From positions 13,702,001 to 13,766,000 of the forward strand of contig NC_091995.1 in the NCBI RefSeq assembly GCF_044704955.1: a stretch of 64,000 bases of DNA, read 5' to 3'. The translations under genes and the position numbers were made by a program. Source of the stretch: Pristiophorus japonicus (lineage: Eukaryota). Positions 17,096 to 37,087 of this stretch are shown one piece after another. The notes under the pieces are model-generated. The model saw only the letters and a program-made list of their open reading frames with translations, had not been told where the DNA came from and searched no databases. Within the stretch, counting starts at the first letter, position 1. The number at the start of each line of letters is the position of its first letter.

Positions 17096-17581
17096 AAGGG
17101 AAATCTGGATCATCTTTTCAAATTGAACAAACGGACGCAGGTGAAAACTGGGAGAGGCAAATTTAGAACCGTCAGGAAATTCCTCGGTGATGAACACATA
17201 GATTAAAAAAAAACTGATTTAGCAACATTACACGCTGCGATGGGACAAGATACTTCCTAAGCGAATGGACTAAAATGGTTTGAATAATCGTCTTCATCTA
17301 TCAATTTTGCCAAATACATTGGAGCGAGAAAAAAAAACCATTTCAATTCGTAGCCATTTCTCAACACACGGCGGGTTAGTGAAACTCTTGGATGGGGACG
17401 AAGTTAAAGGTTCCAGAAGCTGGAACTAGAAACGTTCTCACCTCCCCCCAACTGGGAATCAAAAGAATGCATTATATATAAAGACATGGGAAATGGCAAG
17501 CGGCCGGGCCTGACTGCTTCCTGAACCACTTCAATAGAAATAAACATACAACTTCATATATCGTGTCATAATTTCCCCCTT

Positions 17582-17587
17582 TTTATT
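17582..17587 (-). terminator. Candidate poly(A) signal downstream of the H1-like gene
   Basis: AATAAA on the minus strand about 100 nt past the stop codon, followed by a GU/U-rich tract (GTTGTATGTTTATTT). Confidence 0.4.
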
Positions 17588-17688
17588 AAATCAAACTTTT
17601 AACACGTATGTATGGTTACTACATTTGTGCATATCTGCTACATTTTAGGTTAACATAGTGCGACTTATTACGGCCCCTTCGTCACGAA

Positions 17689-18384
17689 TTAGCGGCCCTG
17701 AAAAGAGCCAGTGTTATGATCTACCAACTCTTCCGATTTAACGCTGGCCGGCGGGGTCTGTGCGGCTGGAGTTTCAGTCGGGCGCCTGGCCACCCTCCGC
17801 ACTTTGGTCACTTTCCACCTGGCTCCCTTACGCAAAACGACGGGTCTTCTCCCGCGCCGGCTCTTCGTCGCCACCTTACGCTTCTTCCTGGCTGCCGCCG
17901 GTCGCTTGGGCTTCTTGGCCGGTCTCTTGACCGCCGCCCTTCTCCTGCGGGAGGCCTGGCCGGCCGGCTGCGACTCTTTGGCCGCCGCCACTTCCACATT
18001 ATTGCCGAGCTTGACCGAGGCGATCGCGTCTCCGGCCGTCCGCACCATCGAACACTTGGCCACCAGACCCCGAACGGCCCGGCTGAGGCGCGAGTCGTGG
18101 CGTGTCACCTTGCAACCACTGGCCGACAGCATCTTCTTCATGGTGGCCATCGATAGGCCGCGGCGCTGCCGGGTGGCCGCCACCGCCTTCATGATCTGCT
18201 CGGCCACCGTGCAGCCGAACTTCTTGTGGCGGTACGGCCGTCGCTTCTTCTTCACCTCCCCCGCAATGTTCAGCGACCCCACCTCGTCCGGGGAAGACAG
18301 CGGCAGAACAGGAGCAACCGGAGGAGGCAAGGTTGCCGGAGCAGACTGGTCCCTTCCCATCCCGTCCTGTTCGGTATCTAGCAT
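17689..18384 (-). CDS. H1: Divergent linker histone H1-like / protamine-like basic protein (231 aa)
   Basis: TVAEQIMKAVAATRQRRGLSMATMKKMLSASGCKVTRHDSRLSRAVRGLVAKCSMVRTAG...SVKL aligns by eye with the H1 winged helix ([60 protein letters not shown]...SFKL). It has a basic C-tail, is intronless, GC-rich, and carries a histone stem-loop. Confidence 0.85.
   Translation of the reverse strand: MLDTEQDGMGRDQSAPATLPPPVAPVLPLSSPDEVGSLNIAGEVKKKRRPYRHKKFGCTVAEQIMKAVAATRQRRGLSMATMKKMLSASGCKVTRHDSRLSRAVRGLVAKCSMVRTAGDAIASVKLGNNVEVAAAKESQPAGQASRRRRAAVKRPAKKPKRPAAARKKRKVATKSRRGRRPVVLRKGARWKVTKVRRVARRPTETPAAQTPPASVKSEELVDHNTGSFQGR
17694..17709 (-). terminator. Histone 3' stem-loop located inside the H1-like ORF
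   Basis: GGCTCTTTTCAGGGCC, followed by GCTAA and a purine-rich GAAGGGGC (HDE-like). Confidence 0.85.
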
Positions 18385-18489
18385 CAGATCGGCGCACTTG
18401 GTTATAGCTCTTCACTCTCGCTGCTGCTTCTTCTCCTTCACTCCGTTCCCGGGCAGCCGCGGCCGCTCTGTGCCCCCGGCCACCAGAGC

Positions 18490-18810
18490 ATTGCCTCTTA
18501 AAGCCGCAGCGCGGACTCGTTCGACTCAATCCGACGCGCAGGCCACGCCCACTCAAGCCCCGCCCACTTGCCCCACCCACGCAAGCCCCGCCCACTTACC
18601 TCACAGAGGCCACGCCCACTTGCCCCACCCACGCAAGCCCCGCCCACTTACCTCACAGAGGCCACGCCAGCTCGCCCCGCCCACTTGCCCCACCACACAG
18701 GCCCCGCCCACTTGTCTCACACAGGCCCCGCCAGCTCGCCCCGCCCACCCACACAGGCCCCGCCCACATGCCCCACCCACACAGGCCCTGTCCACTTGCC
18801 TCACACATAA
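18490..18810 (-). promoter_or_regulatory. H1-like promoter with a tandem array of GC boxes
   Basis: TATA-like CTTTAAGA near 18500, then about ten CCCCGCCC/CCACGCCC (Sp/KLF) motifs in a degenerate tandem repeat. Confidence 0.6.
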
Positions 18811-36706: not shown

Positions 36707-37087
36707 ATGCCTGAAGCGGCGTCCAAGGGCATCGCTCCTAAAAAGGGGCCAAAGAAAGCGGCCACCAAAAAACGGGCCAAAGGCGAGAAGAAGCGCAGGA
36801 AGACCAGGAAACAGAGCTACGGGATCTACATTTACAAAGTGCTGAAGCAGGTCCACCCTGACACGGGTATATCGTCTTCGGCCATGAGTGTCATCAACTC
36901 GTTCGTCAACGACATCTTCGAACGAATCGCCTGCGAGGCCTCCCGCCTGATCCGCTACAGCCGGCGGCAGACCATCTCCTCCCGGGAGATCCAAACCACC
37001 GTCCGCCTGCTGCTGCCGGGGGAGCTGGCCAAGCACGCCGTCTCCGAAGGGACGAAAGCGGTCACCAAATACACCAGCTGCAAATAA
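36707..37087 (+). CDS. H2B: Histone H2B, divergent variant (126 aa, two Cys)
   Basis: [15 protein letters not shown]...[12 protein letters not shown]...[31 protein letters not shown]; intact ORF, promoter and stem-loop. Confidence 0.97.

Follow-up and report, generated by a model that had tools for sequence, protein, structure and literature searches.

Among described histone genes, the closest in working to the gene studied here are the dual-ended ones, which carry both a 3′ stem-loop (SL) and a downstream poly(A) signal. They include H2AX, HIST1H1C and HIST2H2AA3 (PMC5100578, PMC9526256) as well as the germline genes H2B.1 and H2B.W (PMC8857922). The SL of such genes lies in the 3′ UTR, both mRNA forms keep the stop codon, and the poly(A) form serves cells outside S phase. 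For SL-ended mRNAs, the U7/CPSF73 cut falls five nucleotides after the stem (+5), and the usual spacing between stop and SL is 25–60 nt (bioRxiv 10.64898/2026.10.14.759114). The same source surveyed 2,281 metazoan species for core histones, downstream of the stop only and with linker histones excluded, so it could not have seen an SL in the coding sequence of an H1 gene. We found no publication on a coding histone SL or on the H1 group described below, as judged by titles and the openings of abstracts, with most subscription papers outside the search.

Here we describe a histone H1 variant gene in a window of the Pristiophorus japonicus genome, the window being the whole stretch of 64,000 nucleotides that was analysed. 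Like replication-dependent histone genes (RF00032; H4, H2B and H3 of the window), the gene is intronless and clustered, with a 6-bp stem, a 4-nt loop and a purine tract about 15 nt downstream; unlike them, it has its SL inside the open reading frame (ORF), has lost the adenines that flank the SL and gives no match to RF00032. Judged from these sequence features, namely the position of the SL and the flanks bound by SLBP, it does not class as a canonical replication-dependent gene. It differs from the dual-ended genes in that its SL is translated and that trimming would leave the stop codon on no form but the poly(A) one; we infer the same use of the poly(A) form, in non-S-phase cells, for the H1 variant. 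Our best explanation, to which we give a probability of about 0.6, is that the gene's own SL was made coding by the loss of a stop at codon 217, that the productive mRNA is polyadenylated at AATAAA, and that SL-ended copies are unproductive.

The gene, its stem-loop and its stop codon

The ORF list and Pfam identify an intronless ORF (17689..18384, minus strand) for an Arg-enriched histone H1 variant of 231 aa from the first ATG, while the database form of the protein (P0001) starts at the second ATG, 18360, and has 223 aa. The match to PF00538 (Pfam Linker_histone; E 4e-6, 27.4 bits against a cut-off of 22.4), together with the basic tail, agrees with the winged-helix globular domain between basic tails that defines linker histone H1. 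Lysine makes up 10.8% and arginine 13.9% of the protein, compared with 28% and 1–2% in two canonical amphibian H1s, and no S/T-P-x-K/R motif was found in it. Protamine-like H1 proteins are sperm-type H1 variants, and the Arg-rich composition would allow a guess at a germline or sperm-related use. In composition only, the protein is like replication-independent or sperm-type H1 such as H1.0 (PMC5100578), being divergent, Arg-enriched, without S/T-P-x-K/R and likely polyadenylated. However, H1.0 has no SL and lies outside the clusters, whereas the H1 variant has an SL and lies 2 kb from an H4 gene.

The histone cluster of the window comprises the H1 variant and intact H4, H2B and H3 genes, all four scattered among LINE fragments. 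The H2B (36707–37087, plus strand, 126 aa) has diverged from the canonical protein and has a C-terminal TSCK, and no H2A ORF of at least 95 aa is listed in the window. Directly 5′ of the H1 variant is a tandem GC-box array (18542..18804, minus strand) with units of periods 15, 28, 52 and 64; a DNA-run contig contains a 64-nt back-joint at 18700/18637, so the copy number may differ from the assembly. TTTAA occurs upstream of the gene at 18502 (minus strand), and within 350–400 nt of the ATG neither CCAAT nor the H1 box AAACACA was found. The missing CCAAT carries little weight because H4 also lacks it.

The SL (17694..17709, minus strand) is read in frame as codons 226–231, that is GSFQG and the first base of R, and is followed by the 5-nt flank GCTAA (17689..17693), in which the TAA stop (17691–17689) occupies positions +3 to +5 after the stem. 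Its first base is 21 nt short of the ORF end, whereas the SLs of H4, H2B and H3 lie 31, 39 and 58 nt after the stop; the spacing between stop and SL that is characteristic of replication-dependent histone genes is absent here, the SL being within the ORF. The initial annotation had described a 16-nt SL in frame as GSFQG and followed by GCTAA, a stop that ends at the predicted cut site, and ribosomes that cross the SLBP site. The sequence is as it described: the ORF is intact, the last base of TAA is at +5, and ribosomes would pass over the SL. The SL inside the H1 ORF is real and no artefact.

The stem is made of GC, GC, CG, U·G, CG and UA pairs, the U·G of pair 4 being its single wobble, and the loop is UUUC. 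The length of 16 nt, the G-C at pair 2, the loop U1 and U3 and the closing U-A pair are all those of a histone SL. The predicted fold has −8.5 kcal/mol (z −2.85), the three canonical SLs of the window having −9.3 to −9.4. With a degenerate SL pattern, which was written so as to admit the H1 variant copy, we found six strand-matches at four places in the window, the H1 variant, H4, H2B and H3; 1.13 were expected, and six were reached in 0 of 100 shuffles.

The coincidence of stop and cut site needs no design, since the SL of H4, when read in the same frame, also has a TAA in register that gives a stop at +5 (H2B and H3 have none, making one of three canonical genes). Design as the cause was rejected on this ground, and the stop was likely supplied by the A-rich flank of the SL.

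Reading frame, relatives and the ancestral stop

A simpler reading of the ORF end had been put forward in the initial annotation, in which an assembly error or a private 1-nt indel creates the read-through and the true ORF ends at an upstream TAA or TGA. The out-of-frame TAA that it named is indeed present (17738..17740, minus strand), 28 nt before the SL, which is a normal spacing, and an out-of-frame TGA occurs at 17776–17774 on the same strand. Nevertheless, contigs from three sequencing runs cross the ORF end without a gap: X1 (17467–18590), X4 (17200–18590) and X5 (17579–18156). X1 and X4 come from sample S1, possibly the assembly's own source, and X5 from sample S2 of another study. Four of the seven listed runs (X1, X4, X5 and X6) were compared with the window, as contigs, which lose rare variants. 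X6 gave no contig that matches the region, and X6 and X7 contain almost no matching words, neither being evidence on tissue specificity. At 18329 the X5 sequence has a single-letter difference from the window (A>G, plus strand) at whole contig depth, which fits another individual. Short X1 and X4 contigs, with depths of 9.7 and 29, agree with the globular domain over 36 nt (18174–18209) and then diverge; they are probably other H1 genes of the P. japonicus genome.

The relatives argue in the same direction. When the last 32 residues of each relative were compared with the three frames of the window region, frame 0 was followed past the upstream TAA in Rhinoraja (p = 0.003), Pristis (0.004), Heptranchias (0.016), Leucoraja (0.022) and Amblyraja (0.031), while the two remaining frames stayed above p = 0.05 for all 13 proteins, 8 of which had no significant frame at all. 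A resemblance of the Callorhinchus C-terminal end to frame 2 was rejected (p = 0.87). The rays and the sevengill shark Heptranchias read through the TAA in frame 0, so it is a Val-Lys codon junction, in a segment that rays have in common with the window protein, and no former stop. With no gap in three runs, an independent sample included, and with orthologues in the same frame, the indel reading is refuted as the simpler alternative, and we consider it very improbable.

The relatives are proteins named 'histone H1-like' in RefSeq, by automatic annotation only, from Heptranchias, Heterodontus, Chiloscyllium, Pristis and skates, among the named shark and ray matches. They share the basic motif KKKRRPYRH with the H1 variant and fall into one shark-and-ray clade of 13 rows (the window protein and 12 others; support 96/97), within which the six sharks are grouped at 84/92 and outside which the Callorhinchus protein lies; the tree leaves the fork of window, Heptranchias and Heterodontus open. 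As a gene clade, the H1 variant that carries the coding SL appears from these sequences to be common to sharks and rays. A profile search over 1.84 billion representatives gave no further protein with a KKKRRPYRH-type basic motif in its best 150, a metagenome scan for the relatives' DNA gave 314 matching stretches with none encoding a relative, and no short orthologue fragment was found among 53 candidates. A second shark-and-ray H1 paralogue group (P0014, P0015, P0018 and P0021) has acidic C-terminal extensions after the basic tail.

Next we examined the ends of these proteins by back-translation of the terminal hexapeptide to the SL consensus, anchored at the stop codon. The last six residues require no change in the window protein and in both Chiloscyllium proteins (GSSQSL), and GSSLSH of Heterodontus requires one change and is followed by the stop. 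The Phe-to-Ser difference presumably corresponds to loop position 2, where we take the consensus to allow either pyrimidine. In all, an SL-codable hexapeptide followed by a stop is found in four of six sharks, the window included, and in none of seven rays; the other two sharks are Heptranchias, which ends earlier, and Scyliorhinus torazame (six changes). Among the rays Mobula requires three changes and the others nine, and all seven ray ORFs are intact despite lacking an SL-codable end. By comparison, none of the termini of 155 non-orthologous H1-like proteins had a score of 2 or below, and a score of 1 or below was seen in 14 of 36,392 hexamers overall. In the MAFFT alignment the shark hexapeptides do not fall in one column, and the match rests on the anchoring at the stop. 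The comparison was made on peptides, and at that level a hairpin-type C-terminal end is shared among sharks.

Read-through of an SL is not unique in itself, as the corresponding peptide also occurs internally in 7 of the 155 non-orthologous H1-like proteins. For example, P0047 (366 aa, Arg-rich, H1-like, with a similar globular domain) has it in another frame and 20 residues from the C-terminus. What is unusual is the terminal register shared within one orthologous group.

The likely ancestral stop lies at codon 217 (17734..17736, minus strand), 24 nt before the SL, which is close to the usual 25–60 nt and makes an old stop there plausible. The Heptranchias orthologue ends at this column, and the TCG (Ser) of the window is one substitution from TAG; the direction of the change is inferred. 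Under the explanation that we favour, this stop was lost by substitution, and translation would have continued through the former UTR of 24 nt and through the SL until it met a stop in frame, the TAA of the A-rich flank. The stop may have been lost once, in the ancestor of sharks and rays, and regained in Heptranchias, or it may have been lost several times independently; the open fork in the tree does not separate these histories.

We also considered that stops were lost recently and separately in several shark lineages with a weakly constrained tail, some copies perhaps being decaying genes. Each SL would then look intact for the sole reason that it was still an ordinary element of the 3′ UTR a short time ago. 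In agreement with this reading, Heptranchias ends before the SL column and the SL read-through peptide occurs internally in unrelated H1-like proteins. Furthermore, Hypanus (P0011) and Mobula (P0012) use two frames of the same C-terminal DNA (1 mismatch in 17 codons, 0 of 300 shuffles), which indicates a loosely held C-terminal extension. The window branch is long (0.68) and the wing of the globular domain (about 18050–18000, minus strand, residues 111–127) has GDAIAS in place of the GSGASGS, or a close variant of it, that is seen in most orthologues, which points to faster change in this lineage. However, across codons 214–225 skates and window share 6 of 12 residues without a gap, compared with a tail identity of 28–32%, the same frame and stop register recur in four sharks, and the ORF is intact in two samples. 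Accordingly, we hold separate recent losses to be improbable, if less so than an indel.

Processing signals and the predicted mRNA

Two adenines in the 5′ flank and one in the 3′ flank are reported to be needed for full SLBP affinity (PMC10388802). These SLBP-contacting adenines are replaced in the H1 variant, whose 5′ flank (17710..17714, minus strand) ends in C and T where H4, H2B and H3 of the window have two adenines, and with the altered flank the stem gains a further pair, U·G. RF00032 recognises the 3′ ends of H4, H2B and H3 at 35–36 bits; on 17600–17800, which contains the SL of the H1 variant, it gives no match even at E ≤ 1. On the other hand, the two features diagnostic for SLBP, stem pair 2 and loop U3, have been kept. 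Further downstream, from +15, an HDE-like purine tract (17671..17679, minus strand) can pair 8 of 9 bases (six exact, two G·U) with the 5′ end of human U7 (PMC11417402), which may differ from shark U7. By the same measure H3 reaches 8/9, H2B 7/9 and H4 at most 6/9, with a background of 3.3% of positions; the tract lies outside the ORF and pairs as well as or better than those of the canonical genes of the window.

In mammalian data, the tail of an SL end is trimmed by 2–3 nt in the cytoplasm and held at 3 nt by 3′hExo and TUT7 (PMC12775136). Computed on the sequence, trimming of the H1 variant end to +3 or +2 would remove the TAA, and because of this a U7-cut copy is predicted to be a nonstop mRNA.

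A putative alternative 3′ end is marked by an AATAAA (17582..17587, minus strand) at position +107 from the SL and by a G/T-rich segment (17557–17538) about 30–50 nt beyond it, so that a poly(A) signal lies 3′ of the SL as in H2AX-type genes. By itself the hexamer proves little, since AATAAA or ATTAAA also follows the SL at a distance of up to 400 nt in H2B and H3 (two of three canonical genes). X5 consists, over the window, of two contigs confined to 18428–17579, reaching 115 nt past the SL and ending 3 nt after AATAAA, where contigs of the DNA runs continue beyond 17579. With 165 million letters X5 is small beside the roughly 2,500 million of the DNA runs; this and the shape of its contigs suggest that it is an RNA run, and its passage beyond the SL is a weak hint of a longer, polyadenylated mRNA. 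It represents one study; contigs reveal neither RNA ends nor strand, and poly(A) selection would miss SL-ended RNA.

Termination at a stop codon that lacks any 3′ base is expected to be poor. This bears on the model of the initial annotation, in which the working mRNA ends five nucleotides after the SL with essentially no UTR and could escape S-phase decay, in our reading through ribosomes that strip SLBP. The geometry of stop and cut site is exact, the stem and the HDE-like tract are present, and decay is reported to depend on a fixed spacing from stop to SL (PMC12775136, PMC7407380). However, besides the poor termination, trimming by 2–3 nt would remove the stop, the SLBP flanks are degenerate and RF00032 finds no match, and AATAAA and the X5 contig point, weakly, to an mRNA that extends past the SL. 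A stable SL-ended mRNA without a UTR is thus not supported as the working form, and we consider this model unlikely.

In the explanation that we favour, the working H1 variant mRNA would instead be polyadenylated at AATAAA, 107 nt 3′ of the SL. A U7 cut at +5 followed by trimming of 2–3 nt would give a stopless mRNA that is predicted to be cleared, and SL-ended transcripts would be no source of H1 variant protein. Uncoupling of the H1 variant from S phase is then predicted to occur via poly(A) and not via a UTR-less SL end.

Finally, we examined whether the SL behaves as a relic. In a neutral simulation the chance of an intact SL consensus was about 0.05 in the window lineage, 0.02–0.03 in Chiloscyllium and 0.38 in Heterodontus; the simulation was calibrated on tail identity, which may overestimate divergence as the tail is poorly aligned, assumes that the SL has been unconstrained from the common ancestor onwards, and relies on a consensus broad enough to admit the window copy. 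A rough hand product, in which lineages without the motif are not counted, gives a joint neutral chance of 1e-3 to 1e-4. In terms of this model, the SL stem and the HDE-like tract appear better kept than a relic predicts.

Such preservation is what one would expect if the coding SL and the HDE-like tract were under selection in sharks as a means of turning the gene off, the U7 cut of stray transcripts at the stop codon and the trimming leading to nonstop decay in cycling cells. Protein would then come only from cells with little SLBP/U7 processing, in which transcription extends to the poly(A) site. Such a self-destruct SL would have been kept since before the two superorders of sharks split, with the Arg-rich H1 made from poly(A) mRNA only, in cells that no longer carry out U7 processing, for instance late germ cells. 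The poly(A) step is common to this proposal and to the explanation that we favour; what it adds is selection on the SL. Consistent with selection, SL-codable ends occur in three separate shark lineages while the rest of the tail is only 24–40% identical (40% between window and Heterodontus, 24% with Chiloscyllium), the joint neutral chance is low, the HDE-like tract outside the ORF can pair 8 of 9 bases (background 3.3%), and stem pair 2 and loop U3 are retained. Against it, neither Scyliorhinus torazame (six changes) nor any of the seven rays has an SL that can still be recognised, the SLBP flank adenines are lost, and the simulation assumes an ancient release, a consensus that admits its own case and a divergence that may be inflated. 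We therefore regard selection on the SL, and likewise its retention as a self-destruct element, as a tentative possibility, ahead of the UTR-less and separate-loss readings. In the polyadenylated H1 variant, the SL is probably a translated remnant.

Implications for the H1 family of sharks and rays

The spacing between stop and SL (25–60 nt) governs the translation-coupled decay of histone mRNA, and this H1 family offers a natural series in that respect: the stop precedes the SL column in Heptranchias, the SL is translated, with the stop at the cut site, in Pristiophorus, Chiloscyllium and Heterodontus, and it has decayed in rays and the catshark. The series would mark one likely route by which a histone gene of a cluster becomes a polyadenylated variant, with a C-terminal extension drawn from what had been its 3′ UTR. 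Should U7 still be recruited by the SL, the histone 3′-end machinery would here be silencing a gene and not maturing it.
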